A DNA stretch of 27,766 nt. Source: Nitrospirota bacterium (GTDB lineage: Bacteria > Nitrospirota > Thermodesulfovibrionia > Thermodesulfovibrionales > SM23-35). Where the stretch lies: positions 1-27,766 of the forward strand of contig JACUUX010000038.1 in assembly GCA_014859105.1 (NCBI GenBank), written 5' to 3'. Position numbers and translations under genes: made by a program. The notes beneath the pieces were generated by a model, which was given only the letters and a program-made list of their open reading frames with translations, was not told the origin of the DNA and made no database searches. Shown here piece by piece: positions 2,495 through 27,766 of this stretch (position 1 is its first letter; the number at the start of each line of letters is the position of its first letter).

Positions 2495-2862
2495 AATCGG
2501 TTTTCTCAGTCATTCCGGCTTGTCTGGAATCTTTCTTAGAGACAACCCCCTTTTATCCCCTTTAATAAGGGGGAATCAGAAGGATTCCCGACGCACTTCG
2601 CTTGCGGGAATGACGGGTTAACGTATCAACCATTGGAACGGAGTTCGCTATGAATGCCGGACCAGCAATTCTCGATAAAAAAACTGTAAGATTCTTCAGT
2701 CGCTTCGCTCTTTCAGAATGACATTACGAAACCCCTTGTTGTCATTCTGACTCCCTCTCTCTATCATTCCGAACAAAGTGAGGAATCTTTCCTTTCCGTT
2801 CGGGATAAACTCCGCGAGGAATCTCAATGCCTCGCAAACTCACCGGGAATTGCTGATGCCAG
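2495..2862. repeat. Family-A mosaic MITE-like repeat element, copy 1
   Basis: Module order is M1 (gtcattccggcttgtctggaatc hairpin), M2 (ccccttttatcccctttaataagggggaatcagaaggattcccgacgcacttcgcttgcgggaatgacgg), M3 (atcaaccattggaacggagttcgctatgaat), then M4. M4 is bounded by cagcaattc ... gaattgctg inverted ends and contains gtcattc/gaatgac hairpins. The same modules recur at 21536-21818 (reverse), 25285-25686, 23795-23885, 13853-13915 and 27716-27766. Confidence 0.8.
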
Positions 2863-4712: not shown

Positions 4713-4768
4713 CGGAGAAGTACATATTAATCCCCTCCCCATTGACGGGGGAGGGTAAGGGTGGGGGT
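4700..4768. repeat. Family-B GC-rich palindromic element at fabZ-like 3' end and intergenic region
   Basis: ccctccccc ttgacgg ... cccctcccc-attgac-gggggagggtaagggtgggggtg. The hairpin cccctcccc/gggggaggg shares the gagggtaagggtg core with the 7096-7156 element. It overlaps the fabZ-like stop codon at 4710-4712. Confidence 0.7.
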
Positions 4769-4818
4769 GACTAATAATTGAACAGGCTGCAAAATATAGC
4801 TAAAAATCTAATGAAGTT

Positions 4819-4880: not shown

Positions 4881-6128
4881 ATGCTCAACAATCATCGTGT
4901 AGTTATAACCGGTCTCGGTGTTATCTCTTCCATCGGTATAGGCTGGGAGGAATTCTGGGACAATCTTCTCAAAGGGAAATCAGGAATAAGTCCTGTGACA
5001 TCTTTTGATACCACTAATCACATTACTCACAACGGCGGCGAAGTTAAAAACTTTAAGCCTGAAGAATTCATTCCAGAAGAAAAAATTAAATTACTTAACA
5101 GATCATCACAACTCGCCTTTGCAGCAGCAAAGCTTGCAATTGAGGATGCTTATTTGTCCCAAGAAAATTACCCCTCCCCCCTCCCCCTCCCTCAAGGGGA
5201 GGGGGCGAGGGGGAGGGTTGGCATCTGTATAGGAACAACTACAGGGTCGATACAGGCTATTGAGCATATTAATGATAGAATAATCAGTAATAAAGAAATA
5301 GGCAAAGAATTAATAAGTCAACTGCCACCTCATACTACTCCTTCAACGATAGCAAGAGAATTTGATTTAAATGGTCCTAATTTTATGTTTTCCACTGCCT
5401 GTGCAGCAGGCAATTATGCTATAGGTTATGGCTTTGATCTTATACGTTCTAAAAGGGCTGACGTTATTATTGCCGGAGGTTCAGACCCTTTCTCACGGAT
5501 ATCTTTCACAGGGTTCAATCAATTTTCTGTATCTGCTCCTGAAAAGTGTCAGCCTTTTGATAAAAACAGAAAAGGTATGATGGTAGCTGAAGGTGCTGGG
5601 ATTCTTGTTCTTGAATTACTGGAAATTGCTATAAGAAGAAATGCACCTATATATGCTGAGATATCAGGTTATGGTCTAAGCTGTGATGCAGAGCATATGA
5701 CGCAACCTTCTGTCGACGGTATTTCGGAATGTATGATAAAAGCAATGCGTGAAGCTAAAATCGAAACAGAAGATGTAGATTATATATGTGCGCATGGAAC
5801 TGGAACAACTTCTAATGATAAAACGGAATGTGCTGCAATTAAAGAGGTCTTTGGACCACTATATAAAAAAATGCCTGTAAGCTCTATAAAATCAATGCTC
5901 GGACATCCAATGGGTGCTGCATCAGCACTTGAGGCAATTGCATGTGCACTTGCAGTAAAAAATGACATTATTCCTCCAACTATAAATTATGAGACACCCG
6001 ACCCCGAATGTGATATAGATTGCGTTCCAAATAAATCAAGGCAACATCCTGTAAATATAGCTTTGAATAATTCTTATGCTTTTGGTGGGAATAATGCTTG
6101 TTTAGTGGTTAAAAAATTTATAGAATAA
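4881..6128 (+). CDS. Beta-ketoacyl-ACP synthase II-like (FabF-type) condensing enzyme with complete Cys-His-His triad, carrying in-frame GC-rich insertion
   Basis: 415 aa. Active-site Cys in FSTACAAGNYAIG, first His in ICAHGTGTTSNDKTE, Lys and second His in IKSMLGHPMGAASALE, and C-terminal NSYAFGGNNACLVV. Confidence 0.85.
   Translation: MLNNHRVVITGLGVISSIGIGWEEFWDNLLKGKSGISPVTSFDTTNHITHNGGEVKNFKPEEFIPEEKIKLLNRSSQLAFAAAKLAIEDAYLSQENYPSPLPLPQGEGARGRVGICIGTTTGSIQAIEHINDRIISNKEIGKELISQLPPHTTPSTIAREFDLNGPNFMFSTACAAGNYAIGYGFDLIRSKRADVIIAGGSDPFSRISFTGFNQFSVSAPEKCQPFDKNRKGMMVAEGAGILVLELLEIAIRRNAPIYAEISGYGLSCDAEHMTQPSVDGISECMIKAMREAKIETEDVDYICAHGTGTTSNDKTECAAIKEVFGPLYKKMPVSSIKSMLGHPMGAASALEAIACALAVKNDIIPPTINYETPDPECDIDCVPNKSRQHPVNIALNNSYAFGGNNACLVVKKFIE
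5170..5217. repeat. Family-B GC-rich palindromic element inserted in-frame in fabF-like gene
   Basis: cccctcccccctccccctccctcaaggggagggggcgagggggaggg is a near-perfect poly-C/poly-G palindrome. It encodes PSPLPLPQGEGARGRVG, which is not part of the conserved KAS fold. Confidence 0.7.
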
Positions 6129-6152: not shown

Positions 6153-6632
6153 ATGGCTGGAAATATTGAAAAAGAAGCATGTAAGAATATAATTATGAAC
6201 AGCTTTAAGACATATAGCCTTACAACTGATGAAAAACAGGAAATAAAACATCTTATAAAGGCGGAATTAGAAAAACATAATGAAATTGCCTTTGCCTATA
6301 TTTATGGTTCATTTATTGAACCCGAGATGCCTTTTTTCAGAGATATAGATATAGGTATTTACCTCATAGATTATAAAGACGCCGATTGTTTGAAATATGA
6401 AATTGAGTTATCCATTGAATTGGAAAAATGTCTCCAGTACAAATATCCAGTTGATTTAAGAGTTATAAATAAATCAGATATTTTATTTGTGCATAATGTT
6501 ATTCAGGGTGAATTGCTTTTTATAAGAGATGAAGATTTATGGACTGATTTCGTAGTATATGTTTCTTTAAAATACAATGATATAGCCTCTGTATTTAATC
6601 ACTACTTCAAGGAGGCTTATATAGAAAGATGA
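6153..6632 (+). CDS. mntA: Nucleotidyltransferase-domain antitoxin (MntA/MNT family)
   Basis: 159 aa with the minimal nucleotidyltransferase motif (YIYGSF ... RDIDIGIY, i.e. GSx(n)DxD). Its stop overlaps the start of the downstream HEPN gene by 4 bp. Confidence 0.75.
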   Translation: MAGNIEKEACKNIIMNSFKTYSLTTDEKQEIKHLIKAELEKHNEIAFAYIYGSFIEPEMPFFRDIDIGIYLIDYKDADCLKYEIELSIELEKCLQYKYPVDLRVINKSDILFVHNVIQGELLFIRDEDLWTDFVVYVSLKYNDIASVFNHYFKEAYIER

Positions 6633-7048
6633 GTTTGGATAAGGTTAAGATAAAAGCAAGATTTGAGGATATACAAAAGGCTATTGATAGACTTTCTGAG
6701 TTTACAAAGATTGACAAAAATTCATTTCTTTCGAATGAGGATTTTATCCATATAGCCCGTTCCCATCTTCTTATTGCTTCGGAAGCATCTATTAACATCT
6801 GCTACCATATTGCAGCAAAAAGGCTAAAAAGGGCACCAGCCGAATACAGTTCGTGTTTTGAATTATTGCAAAGGCATAAGCTTATATCAGAGGAGTTAGC
6901 ACTCCATCTTATCAAACTAATCGGGCTCAGAAACAGAATGGTCCATCGCTATGAAGAGATAGACTACGGTTTCATATATGACAATTTTAAAGAGATTATA
7001 GAAAACTTTAGAAAACTTATTAATGAAGTCTCAAGTTTGATAATTTGA
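6629..7048 (+). CDS. hepT: HepT-like HEPN-domain toxin (DUF86)
   Basis: 139 aa with the Rx4-6HxY HEPN motif (RNRMVHRY) near the C-terminus. Paired with the upstream MNT-type gene. Confidence 0.75.
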   Translation: MSLDKVKIKARFEDIQKAIDRLSEFTKIDKNSFLSNEDFIHIARSHLLIASEASINICYHIAAKRLKRAPAEYSSCFELLQRHKLISEELALHLIKLIGLRNRMVHRYEEIDYGFIYDNFKEIIENFRKLINEVSSLII

Positions 7049-7095
7049 ATTTGAATATTTTGAACTTGTCCAAAAATGTCATTGACCCGAAAATA

Positions 7096-7205
7096 CCCCT
7101 CACCCTCACCCTTACCCTCTCCCACAAGGGGAGAGGGTAAGGGTGAGGGTGAGGGGTGCAGGGGTGTGTACCCATCCCTTGATGGGAGGGGATAAAGGGG
7201 AGGGT
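7096..7205. repeat. Family-B GC-rich palindromic elements (two hairpins), intergenic
   Basis: 7096-7123 (cccctcaccctcacccttaccctctccc) pairs perfectly with 7129-7156 (gggagagggtaagggtgagggtgagggg), giving a roughly 28 bp stem with a 5 nt loop. A second hairpin, cccatccc-ttgat-gggagggg, lies at 7171-7190. Confidence 0.85.
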
Positions 7206-7289
7206 GTTATATTTTCATGTTTCCTTGTGCCACTTGTGGCATGAGGGTTTGTTTAGGATTTAGATATTAGAATTCGGGATTTAAAAGAT

Positions 7290-7392
7290 ATGTATGATGC
7301 TGTAATCATAGGTACGGACATAAGCGGCCTTGTTTGTAGATGTTATCTGGCAAAGGCAGGAAAAATGGGACGTCATGAGCATTTAATACTTG
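7290..7392 (+). pseudogene. Degenerate duplicate of the 5' end of the downstream CrtI-like oxidoreductase gene (gene remnant)
   Basis: atgtatgatgctgtaatcataggtacggacataagcggccttgtttgtagatgttatctggcaaaggcagg is about 80% identical to 8076-8150 (atgtatgacgccataatcataggtgctggcataggaggccttgtatgcggatgttatctcgcaaaggctgg). The translation MYDAVIIGTDISGLVCRCYLAKAG has a ruined GxGxxG and terminates after 34 codons. Confidence 0.7.
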
Positions 7393-7452
7393 TTAATTAA
7401 CATCCAAAATGCTAAGTTATTTTTGAGGAAATCAAGAAGAAGGAGAAGAAAA

Positions 7453-7698
7453 ATGGTCAGCAAAAAAACCTATAAAGAGCGGATAGTAATTGATCCTGAA
7501 ATTCACTTTGGAAAGCCTTGTGTGGCTGGCACACGAATTCCAGTAGAAAATGTGCTTGAATTAGTTCAGGAAAACATTCCTTTTAGCGAAATTGTGGAAA
7601 AATATTATCCCGACCTTGAGATTGAAGATGTTAAAGCTTGTGTTAGATATGCAACAGATTTGGTTTGTTCGGAAGAAATTCATGTTGGAAAAACTTAA
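7453..7698 (+). CDS. DUF433-family small protein (putative antitoxin)
   Basis: Core HFGKPCVAGTRIPVENVLE is typical of DUF433. Likely start is MVSKKTYKE at 7453 after the purine-rich SD gaagaaggagaagaaaa. The six-frame ORF extends upstream to 7390 via TTG. Confidence 0.7.
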   Translation: MVSKKTYKERIVIDPEIHFGKPCVAGTRIPVENVLELVQENIPFSEIVEKYYPDLEIEDVKACVRYATDLVCSEEIHVGKT

Positions 7699-8054
7699 TG
7701 CGTCTACTTACAGATCAGGACGTGTATAAAATAACAGTAGAACAGCTTAAAAAATGGGGCCATGATGCAATAACCGCTAAAGAGCTTGGTATGCAACAAG
7801 CAGCAGATAGAGATTTACTAAAGAAAACTATTGAAACAAATCGGTTGCTTATTACAAGGGATAAGGATTTTGGGGCACTTGTTTTCTTAGAAGAATCATT
7901 AAATACTGGAGTCATTCTTCTAAGAGTTACTCCAATAACTGTTGAAGATGTACATCGGGAACTTTATCGTCTCTTTCAGGAACATACCGAAGAGGAATTA
8001 AAACATTTATTCTGTGTTGTTGAGCCTCATCGGCATCGAATTCGCCGTTTATAG
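7698..8054 (+). CDS. DUF5615-family PIN-like protein (putative toxin partner of DUF433)
   Basis: ATG at 7698 overlaps the upstream stop (TAATG). MRLLTDQDV ... ITRDKDFG matches the N-terminus and acidic core of DUF5615/Mut7-C-like PIN proteins that pair with DUF433. The six-frame ORF starts earlier at 7665. Confidence 0.65.
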   Translation: MRLLTDQDVYKITVEQLKKWGHDAITAKELGMQQAADRDLLKKTIETNRLLITRDKDFGALVFLEESLNTGVILLRVTPITVEDVHRELYRLFQEHTEEELKHLFCVVEPHRHRIRRL

Positions 8055-8075
8055 TATGGTAAAGCGTAATAAAAT

Positions 8076-9497
8076 ATGTATGACGCCATAATCATAGGTG
8101 CTGGCATAGGAGGCCTTGTATGCGGATGTTATCTCGCAAAGGCTGGCATGAAGGTGCTTATCTGCGAGCAGCATTATAAACCGGGAGGTTATTGCACATC
8201 CTTTACAAGACAGGGTTTTACTTTTGATGCTGCTCCTCACTGTTTTGGATCTTACAGAAAAGATGGAATGATGAGAAAAATCCTTCAAGACTTAGAAGTA
8301 GATAAAAAATTAAATATAATAAGACCCGACCCTTCAGATATTATAATGACACCTGATTATGAAGTCATCTTCTGGAATGATTTCGAAAGGACCACAGAGG
8401 GATTTCAAAGAATGTTTCCTGAAGATCGCACTAATATCAGGAATTTCTTCACCCTGTTAATGGATACCGATCCTAACTCCTTCTCTAGAATGAAGAACCG
8501 TACCTTCAAAGAATTATTAGATCAATATTTAACTAATGTAAAGTTGAAGTCGATCCTATCCTTTCCATTTCTGGGAATCGGAGGTTTGCCTTCGTCCATG
8601 ATATCTGCCTTCATAGGAGCAAAACTCTTCTCCGAATTTTTATTTGACGGTGGGTATTATCCCGAAGGTGGCATGCAGGCGCTGCCTGATGCTTTAGCAG
8701 AGAGATTAAAAGAGTTCGGCGGTGAGTTGAGACTCTCCTGTCCTATCAAAAAAATACGAGTAAGAGAGAATAGAGTTACGGGCGTAATCTCAGAAAAAGA
8801 CGGCTTCATGCCTTCAAGATATGTGATTTCGAACTGTGATGCCAGACAGACTTTTTTCAAACTCATAGGCGGGAGAAAGGTTGAGAGAGAGTTCTCTCAG
8901 AGATTAAAGAAGATGGTGCCCTCTATATCGAATTTCATTGTCTATATGGGCATAGACGGTCATTTTGAAACCCTGCCGAGACCAGGAACCACCCTTTCCT
9001 TTTTTAGATACTATGACATAGAGAAGGCATACCGGTCAGTACTAAAAGGCGACTTCGAAGGCTACGGCGGATATATGCTGCGAGCCTCCCGGGATACCCC
9101 GGTTATCATAGCAATCATTCCTGTACCATTTAAAAACAAAACCTATTGGAAGGATCACAAGCAAAGATTATCGGAATATCTAATAGAGAGAATAGAGAGA
9201 GATTTGATTCCGAATCTCACAGCCCATATCGTATATAAAGACGCATCCACTCCATCTACCTTAAACAGATATACTTTAAACTATAAAGGTGCCTCCTTTG
9301 GCTGGGCTGGTATACCTTCGCAATTAGCAGTCCCGGGCCTGAGAAAGTGCTCGTATACAGAGGGGCTCTATTTGACAGGACATTGGACTACACTTGGAGT
9401 AGGAATCTCTGGAGTGGCGTATGTTGGGTATGACACCGCGAAGATTCTTATAAGGAGAGAGGTAAATAGGCAAAACATCTCATTTTTGATAAAATAA
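8076..9497 (+). CDS. NAD(P)/FAD-dependent oxidoreductase, phytoene desaturase (CrtI)/amine-oxidase family
   Basis: 473 aa. N-terminal dinucleotide-binding motif YDAIIIGAGIGGLVCGCYLAKAGMKVLICEQ ... PGG, and a C-terminal FGWAG ... LYLTGHWT motif characteristic of the CrtI-like family. Confidence 0.75.
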   Translation: MYDAIIIGAGIGGLVCGCYLAKAGMKVLICEQHYKPGGYCTSFTRQGFTFDAAPHCFGSYRKDGMMRKILQDLEVDKKLNIIRPDPSDIIMTPDYEVIFWNDFERTTEGFQRMFPEDRTNIRNFFTLLMDTDPNSFSRMKNRTFKELLDQYLTNVKLKSILSFPFLGIGGLPSSMISAFIGAKLFSEFLFDGGYYPEGGMQALPDALAERLKEFGGELRLSCPIKKIRVRENRVTGVISEKDGFMPSRYVISNCDARQTFFKLIGGRKVEREFSQRLKKMVPSISNFIVYMGIDGHFETLPRPGTTLSFFRYYDIEKAYRSVLKGDFEGYGGYMLRASRDTPVIIAIIPVPFKNKTYWKDHKQRLSEYLIERIERDLIPNLTAHIVYKDASTPSTLNRYTLNYKGASFGWAGIPSQLAVPGLRKCSYTEGLYLTGHWTTLGVGISGVAYVGYDTAKILIRREVNRQNISFLIK

Positions 9498-13811: not shown

Positions 13812-13852
13812 TTTTTTCTCCTTTCAAACTAAGTAATATGCTTACAATAAAC

Positions 13853-13915
13853 GCGGAATCCAGTCCTTGATTTCTCTGGATACCTGCTTCCGCAGGAATG
13901 ACAGAATACGCACGC
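13853..13915. repeat. Family-A repeat fragment (M4-like hairpin) in yceD-rpmF spacer
   Basis: gcggaatcc ... cttccgcaggaatgacagaa shares the ggaatc / ggaatgacag hairpin arms with the other family-A copies. Confidence 0.5.
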
Positions 13916-13967
13916 AAGTCTATTTATGGGACAGCACACTAGGTTAAAGCTTTTTTACATATTCCTA

Positions 13968-21525: not shown

Positions 21526-21535
21526 CCAAGACCCT

Positions 21536-21818
21536 TTTAATTCATAGCGAACTCTGTTCCAATAGTTGATTCATTAGGTTGTCATTCCCGCTTGTCGGGA
21601 ATCCTTCTGTTAACAAAGAAAGATTCTGGACAAGCCAGAATGACAGAATTAAAAATCTTAAACAACTTTTAAGATCTTTGATGATTAATAGCATAGCGAA
21701 AGGTTGCGGCTATCTATAAACCTTACATAATTTGCTCCGAAAATGTCATTCCGAGCGAAGCGAGGAATCTTGTCTTTGAGATTGCTTCAGGCTAAAGCCC
21801 TCGCAATGACATTTTTAT
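21536..21818. repeat. Family-A mosaic repeat, copy 2 (reverse orientation)
   Basis: 21538-21580 is the reverse complement of module M3 (aattcatagcgaactctgttccaat). 21581-21610 is M2rc (gtcattcccgcttgtcgggaatcc). 21612-21650 is M1rc (agattctggacaagccagaatgacagaatt). 21651-21695 is M5rc (cttaaacaacttttaagatctttgatgattaatagc). 21738-21815 is M4 (tgtcattccgagcgaagcgaggaatctt ... ccctcgcaatgaca). Confidence 0.8.
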
Positions 21819-21864
21819 CTTCCTTTATGTCGTATATTCGGCATGAAGGTTTAGTTTAAATTAG

Positions 21865-23766: not shown

Positions 23767-23794
23767 ATTTAGTGTCTGTTTATAAATTGCTATT

Positions 23795-23885
23795 CAAATA
23801 GTCCGTCACTCCCCGACTTGATCGGGGAATCCGGTATTTTCAATAGGTTCTGGATTGTCCGTTCAAGCCGGACAATGACAGAAGA
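23795..23885. repeat. Family-A repeat, short copy in trkH-trkA spacer
   Basis: cactccccgacttgatcggggaatcc (M2-like hairpin) and gattgtccgttcaagccggacaatgacag (M1-like hairpin). Confidence 0.6.
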
Positions 23886-23921
23886 CTACTTTATGGACAG
23901 ACTGTATTTAAGGTATAAACA

Positions 23922-25259: not shown

Positions 25260-25284
25260 GGCAAATTATATCATAACCGGGTTA

Positions 25285-25686
25285 AACATCAGCAATTCTT
25301 TGCGAAGAAGAGACAAGATTCCTCAGTCGTCCCGACAGTTGCCGGAACTCCTTCGGAATGACAAAATGAGCCTTCTTCATTGTCATTCCGAGCGAAGCGA
25401 GGAATCTTAAAGCTTTACAAATTAACCGAGAATTGCTGATTAATCATTTGATATCTTGTGAATTATGCAAGACAATAGTTAAAATTTTAAATATGCTATT
25501 AATCTTTAAATATCTTAAGGGTCGTTCAATATCTTCAATTCTGTCATTCTGGCTTGTCCAGAATCTTTCTTCGAACAACCCCCTAACCCCCTTTACTAAG
25601 GGGGATTCAGAAGGATTCCCGATCCGCCTTAGGCGGAGGAATGACGGCTTAACTTATCAAGCATTGGAACGGAGTTCGCTATGAAT
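25285..25686. repeat. Family-A mosaic repeat, copy 3 (M4-M5-M1-M2-M3)
   Basis: 25288-25440 is M4 (atcagcaattc ... tgtcattccgagcgaagcgaggaatctt ... gagaattgctgat). 25495-25537 is M5. 25538-25570 is M1 (aattctgtcattctggcttgtccagaatc). 25578-25645 is M2. 25646-25686 is M3, ending cattggaacggagttcgctATGAAT, and that ATG is the midA-like start. Confidence 0.8.
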
Positions 25687-27557: not shown

Positions 27558-27715
27558 TGTGTCCTTATATCCTAAAAGCACATCCGTAAGATATCTCTTT
27601 CTTCATAAGTATAGCCAATAATATTCAAAAAAGGCATGAAAAATATAAAATATTTTTAACAATTAAGAAAAAATACCTAACCCGGATTATTCATAAAATT
27701 ATTGGCAAAACTTAT

Positions 27716-27766
27716 GCTATTAATCATCAAAGATCTTAAAAGTTGTTTAAGTTTTTCAATTCTGTC
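27716..27766. repeat. Family-A repeat, copy 5 (truncated by window end)
   Basis: gctattaatcatcaaagatcttaaaagttgtttaagtttttcaattctgtc is module M5 followed by the first bases of M1. It is the reverse complement of 21640-21693. Confidence 0.7.

Follow-up and report, generated by a model that had tools for sequence, protein, structure and literature searches.

Background

Short palindromic repeats crowd several intergenic regions of a Nitrospirota contig, which raises the question of whether they belong to one mobile element or to several. The contig, referred to here as the window, is the entire 27,766-bp sequence of an NCBI metagenome-assembled genome (MAG) contig labelled "Nitrospirae bacterium" (P0083). 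A first-pass annotation, made from the sequence alone, divided the repeats into five modules (M1 to M5) and described a single mosaic family of miniature inverted-repeat transposable elements (MITEs) whose modules had been shuffled between copies. The modules do recur in all six intergenic blocks in which they had been placed. In our judgment, however, these blocks are probably pile-ups of three independent repeat classes that accumulated through separate, nested insertions: class A, small oriented hairpins of the kind named Ssn-related motifs (SRMs) in Neisseria; class B, a MITE bounded by M5 and M3 (MITE-A); and class C, a second MITE corresponding to M4 (MITE-B). The high repeat density would then be explained by layered colonization of intergenic DNA rather than by one shuffling element. 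Repeats of these kinds are already known; what goes beyond description is the insertion of MITE-A at start codons and its unannotated candidate parent.

Comparable systems occur in other bacteria. Correia elements of Neisseria (CREE/NEMIS) are MITEs of ~100-200 bp that insert at TA, duplicate it and can alter expression of neighboring genes; to our knowledge, their parent transposase long escaped identification. Elements of the IS630/Tc1-mariner and IS5 groups share TA-centered insertion, a short duplication, inverted ends and a single open reading frame (ORF). Neisseria intergenic mosaic elements (NIMEs) are mosaics of palindromic units and other motifs. The neisserial NTS repeat (CGTCATTCCCGCGMAVGCGGGAATCYRG) belongs to a broader set named "Ssn-related motifs", and SsnA, a 94-aa GIY-YIG protein, cuts NTS/SRM as single-stranded DNA (PMC11893778). 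An arrangement resembling an insertion sequence (IS), NTS-ssnA-NTS, was pointed out in the same work, as was a comparison of NTS repeats with bacterial interspersed mosaic elements (BIMEs) and repetitive extragenic palindromes (REPs) (PMC11893778).

Results

Comparison of orthologous loci separates M4 from the M5...M3 modules. Locus L259 encodes an ortholog of the window's methyltransferase (80% protein identity) in the same trkA, methyltransferase, PilZ-regulator order, and has M4 without M5-M1-M2-M3. Locus L261 has neither, and a locus of a sister strain (L003, 14599-14775) has M5...M3 without M4. The idea of one mosaic family of shuffled modules did not survive this comparison. Module order does differ, as had been noticed (M1-M2-M3-M4 in region 1, M4-M5-M1-M2-M3 in region 5), but shuffling is not the cause: the orders differ because M4 is independent and lies 3' of M3 in region 1 and 5' of M5 in region 5.

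The same comparison supplies an empty site for MITE-A. In L259 it reads ...TTTTAATTATGAATTCC (in longer context, ...AAAATTTTAATTATGAATTCCCTC), and the filled site in the window reads ...TTTTAAATATG, 188 bp of additional DNA and AATTCC (in longer context, ...AAAATTTTAAATATG, the insert from CTATTAATC to GAGTTCGCTATG, and AATTCCCTC). It follows that the 188 bp of MITE-A copy a (25496-25683, + strand) were inserted on the start codon of the Methyltransf_28 gene, with duplication of TATG (or TA) around them; the two TATG copies lie at 25492-25495 and 25680-25683. The ATGAAT that had been counted as part of the repeat at this copy is native to the gene, because 84 of 120 orthologs begin with Met-Asn. 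In copy a, a MITE has landed precisely on a start codon and has apparently left the gene intact, which makes it a clear-cut example of such an insertion.

A promoter-like sequence, TTGTGA-18-TAAAAT (25456-25485, +), which is probably native, ends 7 nt before the left-junction ATG at 25493; it was the only informative result of a promoter scan of the window. The 188 bp are missing from L261, L263 and L265 as well as from L259. Orthologs without the insertion keep the promoter-like sequence as TTGTGA-17/18-TAAAAT ending 7-9 nt before the ATG, a distance that suggests a leaderless or nearly leaderless methyltransferase gene. From the recreated ATG, a stop-free frame of 63 codons runs through the whole element (25493-25684, +), its TGA (25682-25684) overlapping the native ATG (25681-25683) as ATGA. 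A GGAG lies 6 nt before the native ATG at 25681. After insertion, the promoter would have stayed upstream and faced the recreated ATG at 25493, while copy a would have become a 188-nt leader that places this GGAG ahead of the native start.

Three other interpretations of this site were rejected. M3 as a portable cassette of ribosome-binding site and ATG that supplies a start is contradicted at copy a by the empty site and by the N-termini of the orthologs. A 5-codon mini-ORF (MNNxG*), considered as a leader peptide, is a consequence of the conserved long end, and the sequence at 25439-25460, considered as a second M5 start, is native and also present in L261.

Copy alignment defines MITE-A by its ends, (T)ATG(C/T)TATTAATC...AAAGATCTTAAAAGTTG on the left and ...CCATTGGAAC(A/G)GAGTTCGCTATGAAT on the right. 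M5 and M3, which had been taken for hairpins on gtcattcc arms, are thus the conserved ends of a separate element, and that hairpin description held for M1, the 3' half of M2 and the M4 core. The interior is variable, being unrelated sequence in L010 and other hairpins in L053. Elements are short (109-275 bp), non-coding and multicopy, with four copies in the window and at least 120 metagenome stretches. The metagenome scan with M3, whose pattern required ATGAAT, gave at least 118 distinct copies among the matches listed; 49 copies have both ends.

Within the window, copy a holds an SRM-type unit (25543-25565, +), a C/G hairpin (25587-25604) and a second SRM-type unit (25614-25645, -). Copy b (21536-21695, - strand; M3 at 21540-21564, M5 end at 21695) holds a head-to-head pair (21581-21603 and 21622-21644). 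Copy c (27713-27766, +) is a 5' part cut by the contig end and is complete in the sister strain (~L001 19953-20149). Copy d (2631-2655, +) is partial, with an M3 end and no M5 end; M3 runs on into a degenerate long end, itself interrupted by M4. Presence and absence vary between relatives: the GH57-dtd spacer measures 11 nt in L265 versus 339 nt in the window, and the sister strain has an additional MITE-A copy at the start of its ketoacyl synthase (KAS) gene where the window has none, in a tract that is also recombinant (90-93% identity). A literature search on the M3 sequence and on MITEs at start codons returned nothing relevant.

Two side observations concern the same ends. A solo sequence of the left-end type of the IS-like unit described below, CTAACCCGGATTATTCATA, lies at 27677-27695 (+), and 27677-27712 and the unrelated locus L175 share YTAR-N5-ATTATTCATA followed by AAATTATTG, which hints at a further MITE subfamily with the same terminus. 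In metagenome loci L218 and L228, M3 is joined straight to M5 (...GAGTTCGCTA followed by TG(C/T)TATTAATC), the arrangement expected of tandem copies or of a MITE-A circle junction.

The ends of MITE-A are shared with a larger element. On higher-GC contigs, an IS-like unit of about 1.75-2.1 kb with a single ORF of ~545 codons (loci L132, L142, L126, L172, L237 and L246-L255) has M3, in reverse complement, as its left end. M5, likewise in reverse complement, matches AACAACTTTTAAGAT, the stretch just 3' of the stop codon; a 29-nt left end and a 15-nt post-stop stretch are common to the two elements. One identical 547-aa protein, P0030, occurs in at least seven different flanking contexts, and its unit, of about 2.1 kb, is always bounded between the flanks as CTAG-N5-ATTATTCATAGCGAACTCCGTTCCAATGG...ATGAATAAT-N5-CTAG. 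It is found mostly on contigs of 1.7-3.4 kb, as for collapsed multicopy elements. The boundaries in L254, CTAG at the left and CTAT at the right, are consistent with a TA duplication. A putatively autonomous partner with matching ends, of the kind that the first-pass annotation had proposed to look for, was found for M5...M3; none was found for M4 in the fetched loci.

Because of the architecture of the unit, we infer that the ~545-aa protein is a transposase, and MITE-A would be an internally deleted relative of the unit. The protein family comprises 13,910 representatives at E ≤1e-3 and 1,132 at E ≤1e-30; none of the 1,132 has a Pfam domain. Residues D161, E262 and E344 of the protein are invariant. 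Members are annotated as "hypothetical" even on RefSeq plasmids, and distant homologs occur on plasmids of Mycobacterium, Rhodococcus and Burkholderia. A Mycobacterium riyadhense plasmid has four matching places, with two adjacent copies beside IS4 transposase genes. The distant homologs P0079 and P0080, from high-GC DNA, have different ends. The unit is a candidate parent for a widespread MITE, and its protein belongs to a large, wholly unannotated family.

The position of copy a recurs among MITE-A copies. Among the 49 two-ended copies, 20 lie directly against an ORF of 90 codons or more with a native-looking N-terminus, such as RibD (MNDELYMKRAL) and KAS (MNKRVVITG). A Shine-Dalgarno sequence precedes the left-junction ATG in 6/20 gene-abutting copies versus 0/29 others. 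The frame of that ATG is open through the element in 29/49 copies, where shuffled sequences give an expectation of 1.8, although the hairpin-rich interior is stop-poor (frames 0, 1 and 2 are open in 33, 21 and 9 of 49) and M5 alone suffices to close both other frames. Among the 20, this frame ends within 8 nt of the start codon of the gene in 13, at a TGA or TAA that overlaps the ATG, and it is in phase with the gene in only two. By joining its terminal TG to the target TA, the element would create a new ATG and leave it the promoter or ribosome-binding site of the gene; the element would be stop-free in the new frame, and the TGA or TAA over the original start would allow re-initiation. That MITE-A is specialized for inserting at start codons while leaving the gene active, and has an autonomous relative with a new transposase fold, is a tentative proposal that we hold to be rather doubtful. 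The copies share ancestry, the interior is stop-poor and the scan pattern required ATGAAT, and we therefore do not advance an element built for start codons as our main claim.

Class A unites M1, the 3' half of M2, the cores of the two M4 copies and the blocks at 13876-13902 and 23804-23879 in one design: (N)GTCATTCC, stem, loop, complementary stem and GGAATC(Y)TT, together an oriented imperfect palindrome of 23-46 nt. M2 joins two hairpins, one of the C/G type and one of the GTCATTCC type in reverse orientation. All 14 units in the window have (N)GTCATTC or GTCACTC at the 5' end and GAATC at the 3' end. Two features of SRMs are present: an imperfect palindrome of 20-50 nt able to fold as a hairpin in single-stranded DNA, and conserved, oriented, non-palindromic flanks (CGTCA... 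5', GGAATCYRG 3'; 14/14 units). GTCATTC-N7-32-GAATC matches 10 times in the window versus 0.13 expected (100 shuffles), and GTCATTCC/GGAATGAC occurs nine times, all but one intergenic. As single-stranded DNA, repeat segments fold better than their shuffles (z -2.2 to -6.0).

Further copies of both M1 and M3 exist outside the window, as the first-pass annotation had anticipated. A scan for the M1 type with GTCATTCNNGCTTGTCNNGAATC (one genome per species) gave at least 120 stretches, to set beside those found with M3; the matches listed are mostly from Nitrospirota/Thermodesulfovibrionia, and some come from MAGs of Patescibacteria, Gammaproteobacteria and Gemmatimonadota. The loci fetched for repeat comparisons total 1.58 Mb and contain 401 class A units, which reduce to 148 distinct interiors. 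The stem is extended by at least three further pairs in 89% of the 401 units versus 9% when shuffled, with the compensatory variants CGG/CCG, CCG/CGG, TGG/CCA and CAG/CTG at positions left free in the search pattern. Neighboring units are arranged head-to-head (+-) in 144 of 194 pairs, at a median gap of 18 nt. Class A hairpins fill the interior of MITE-A and MITE-B alike, those at 13876-13902 and 23804-23879 are free-standing, and the class is much more widespread than the two MITEs.

In the first block, the M1 unit GTCATTCCGGCTTGTCTGGAATC (2509-2531, +; pattern match and DNA fold) stands head-to-head with the 3' half of M2 (2583-2614, -; pattern match), and the C/G hairpin CCCCTTTAATAAGGGGG of the 5' half of M2 (2557-2573; copy alignment) lies between them. 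The yceD-rpmF spacer has a stand-alone hairpin at 13876-13902 (-; pattern and fold), just after the 3' stump of a + unit at ~13855-13863. Head-to-head pairs occupy 21745-21810 (21745-21769, + with a GCGAAGC mini-loop; 21780-21810, - with the GTCATTGC variant; fold) and, in the trkH-trkA spacer, 23804-23879 (23804-23834, +; 23850-23879, -; pattern and fold). As a side observation, the hairpins at 21745-21769 and 25382-25406 both carry a GCGAAGC loop between tandem G-A mismatches. The sequence d(GCGAAGC) forms an unusually stable DNA mini-hairpin, a property that fits a role at the DNA rather than the RNA level.

Relatives of the window carry GIY-YIG genes beside such hairpins. Proteins of ~100 aa with this name are recorded from Nitrospirae, Nitrospirales and Dissulfurispiraceae (P0260 is a Nitrospirota example), and the gene is bracketed by a + hairpin 5' and a - hairpin 3' in a closed Thermodesulfovibrionales chromosome (L266) and in a Nitrospirae MAG (L267). 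The latter also holds GATTCTGGACAAGCCAGAATGAC, which is identical to M1 of the window. A decayed GIY-YIG gene has the same hairpin-flanked arrangement in L162, which was found, together with L186, by tblastn with GIY-YIG consensus sequences; a regular-expression search for such genes in the loci had no match. Clustering of hairpin-flanked ORFs over 246 loci, with no search aimed at RAYT (the REP-associated tyrosine transposase), revealed no enriched family, as expected if the partner gene is single-copy. Class A would fold as a hairpin in single-stranded DNA, and a small GIY-YIG nuclease of the Ssn type, encoded elsewhere in the genome, may recognize and cleave it and perhaps spread it. The Ssn/NTS hairpin system would thereby extend to Nitrospirota and to the other phyla seen in MAGs.

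MITE-B is 149-193 bp long, with the 9-bp terminal inverted repeats CAGCAATTC/GAATTGCTG that had been reported for M4 (2663-2671/2847-2855 and 25290-25298/25430-25438) and 9-bp flanking duplications. Copy 1 (2663-2855) lies between ATGCCGGAC (2654-2662) and ATGCCAGAC (2856-2864) and contains SRM-type units at 2690-2722 (-) and 2763-2787 (+, degenerate). Copy 2 (25290-25438) lies between GTTAAACAT (25281-25289) and ATTAATCAT (25439-25447), with units at 25317-25362 (-) and 25382-25406 (+). Flanking repeats agree at 8/9 and 7/9 positions. The copies are 73% identical and each holds a tail-to-tail class A pair. Copy 2 is present in L259 and absent from L261 and is therefore an older, separate insertion. 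Duplications at copy boundaries, suggested earlier as a check on mobility, were thus seen for both MITEs.

The repeats are set among housekeeping genes (fatty-acid synthesis, plsX-rpmF-yceD, glycine cleavage, enolase, GH57, dtd and trkHA). A Pfam search of all window ORFs found no transposase, RAYT or GIY-YIG gene, in agreement with the first-pass annotation, and its description of the elements as non-autonomous is supported, at least two of them being true MITEs. Its placement of all copies between convergent or divergent genes was mistaken: most blocks are flanked by co-directional genes (+/+ at 2365-2953 and 21526-21864; -/- at 13812-13967, yceD-rpmF, and 23767-23921, trkH-trkA), and 25260-25680 is the sole divergent spacer with repeats. 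The repeats sum to about 1.26 kb (4.5%) instead of 1.4 kb.

Discussion

We propose that MITE-A inserts at TA, that the TG with which it starts restores an ATG at the left junction, and that class A hairpins have colonized its interior. Any effect of the repeats on expression of neighboring genes would come in addition.

Several observations weigh against parts of this proposal. The ~545-aa protein has no sequence relative in Pfam, NCBIfam or the PDB, and its predicted structure resembles only a sheet like that of the TATA-binding protein (TBP) and a winged helix, and no known transposase fold. No profile or fold of a known IS family (DDE/RNase H, DEDD, HUH, serine or tyrosine recombinase) was matched by the unit, and the protein was found only in higher-GC organisms, not in Nitrospirota loci. 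MITE-B is known from two sites only, without further copies or a partner in the fetched loci. On the side of class A, the 48 kb available for this organism contain no ssn gene, and the GIY-YIG genes of relatives, although Ssn-like, are only putative members of cd10448. The published SRM pattern, HGTCWYN(0-2)YYVSBRHN(0-5)WNVSBRGN(0-2)RNCYNB, is matched by only one of the 14 window units (23804-23834; 0.05 expected). The other 13 miss it because their stems are 2 bp shorter, and we therefore regard class A as a new branch of the SRM kind, not as textbook members.

The exact termini of MITE-A also raise a difficulty. The left terminus is TGCT-ATTAATCAT and full-length copies end in ATGAATAAT-N5, and copy a lacks the last 16 nt of that right end; the N5-6 next to CTAG varies among otherwise identical IS copies. 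The motif YTAR-N5-ATTATTCA may be an inverted repeat of the element or one half of a palindromic target. The variable N5 and the short end of copy a favor a target. This reading implies an empty site of the form CTAG-N5-ATTATTCA-TA-TGAATAAT-N5-CTAG; the uninterrupted palindrome ATTATTCATATGAATAAT is absent from the 1.58 Mb of loci, and this absence, together with the presence of the motif inside inserted DNA at the M5 end, favors a repeat.

Could a simpler account serve for all six blocks? A single mosaic MITE, one mobile unit whose internal modules recombine into various orders, would explain why modules occur together in the same spacers and why all blocks share a hairpin class. We consider it very improbable, given that M4 and M5...M3 occur independently (L259, L261 and L003), that the two differ in their ends and in their flanking duplications, and that the M5...M3 interior is wholly different in L010 and L053. 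Alternatively, M5...M3 could be a conserved cis-regulatory leader or a small structured RNA of a regulon, since ~40% of M5-bearing copies (20/49) abut real gene starts and M3 is identical at orthologous genes whose coding DNA is 65-90% identical, which is partly an effect of the search pattern. This, too, is improbable. Rfam gave no relevant match at gathering or E-value thresholds in the window and 15 loci; copies point either way relative to genes, and some, such as 21536-21695, lie against the 3' ends of genes. Conservation does not extend to the interior, the ends match those of the IS-like unit, and a close ortholog has an empty site.

For the hairpins, the most serious competitor is a classical REP/REPIN system mobilized by RAYT, an IS200/IS605-type Y1 transposase. 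The head-to-head doublets, hairpin covariation, intergenic sites and mosaic clusters do resemble REPIN/BIME, and a single-copy gene flanked by its own repeats is common to both systems. We nevertheless think this unlikely: the GTCATTCC/GGAATC flanks, conserved and oriented, are those of the NTS design, the hairpin-flanked genes in L162, L266 and L267 encode a GIY-YIG nuclease, not a Y1 (HUH) transposase, and the 246 loci, in which RAYT was not searched for specifically, show no gene family enriched between hairpins. There is very little probability that the hairpins are host terminators or mRNA-stabilizing stem-loops that merely resemble repeats. Three M1 units did score as terminator-like, with a 7-bp stem followed by CTTTCTT; against this, the stems are weak and AT-rich, units lie in operon spacers in both orientations and 5' of start codons, and near-identical sequences occur across phyla, which argues for spread rather than local evolution. 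The hairpins may still have a secondary terminator or stabilizing role.

Three independent classes therefore remain our preferred explanation, and each has known counterparts. Class A resembles NTS/dRS3 of Neisseria in being an oriented imperfect palindrome with (C)GTCATTCC 5' and GGAATC(Y) 3', in its hundreds of intergenic copies and in the small GIY-YIG genes flanked by repeats, and differs in its shorter stems, CTTGTC-type loop and host phylum. MITE-A is like Correia elements a small MITE near genes that inserts at TA with TA duplication; however, its ends are unrelated, an ATG is recreated at the left junction, insertions are often exactly on start codons and a candidate parent element has been identified. 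The IS-like unit recalls IS630/Tc1-mariner and IS5-group elements (TA within CTAG/YTAR, a 2-4 bp duplication, short inverted ends and a single ORF), but no transposase model or fold, DDE or other, fits its protein. The blocks as a whole resemble NIMEs and E. coli BIMEs, which are likewise intergenic mosaics of short palindromic units and other motifs in variable order, except that here the non-hairpin motifs are the ends of two distinct MITEs, each of which has left an insertion footprint of its own.

Additional observations

The window is 100% identical to three Logan contigs from run SRR11917416 and ~99% identical to a 48-kb JGI contig (L001, L003), which represents the sister strain. Breaks in the Logan contigs fall at 2480, 21562, 25624 and 27741 of the window, the first just 5' of the first repeat block and the others inside repeats, and the window itself ends within a repeat; multicopy DNA has this effect on assemblies. 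No tRNAs were found in the window.

A fourth repeat class consists of GGGGAGGG-type hairpins at 4733-4770, 7095-7157 and 7170-7207. The second is a perfect palindrome with 29-nt arms, and the only matches in the E-value mode of Rfam were spurious, miRNA-like ones on this G-rich palindrome (7094-7158). Related G-rich hairpins adjoin M3 in several metagenome copies. The KAS gene (4881-6128) contains an in-frame G/C-rich palindromic repeat, CCCTCCCCCCTCCCCCTCCCTCAAGGGGAGGGGGCGAGGGGGAGGG, at 5180-5222. Compared with the allele of the sister strain (L003), this insertion adds PSPLPLPQGEGARGR, in the manner of the Rickettsia palindromic elements in coding genes.

Between 4770 and 10921, identity to L003 falls to 88-94% against ~99% overall, which suggests a recombination import. 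The tract includes toxin-antitoxin-like pairs, Polbeta/HepT at 6153-7048 and DUF433/DUF5615 at 7390-8054. A 76-nt direct repeat (82% identical) occurs at 7285-7360 and 8071-8146; the latter copy is the 5' end of an amine-oxidase gene (8076-9497), and the former looks like a duplicated gene-start fragment 5' of the DUF433 gene.

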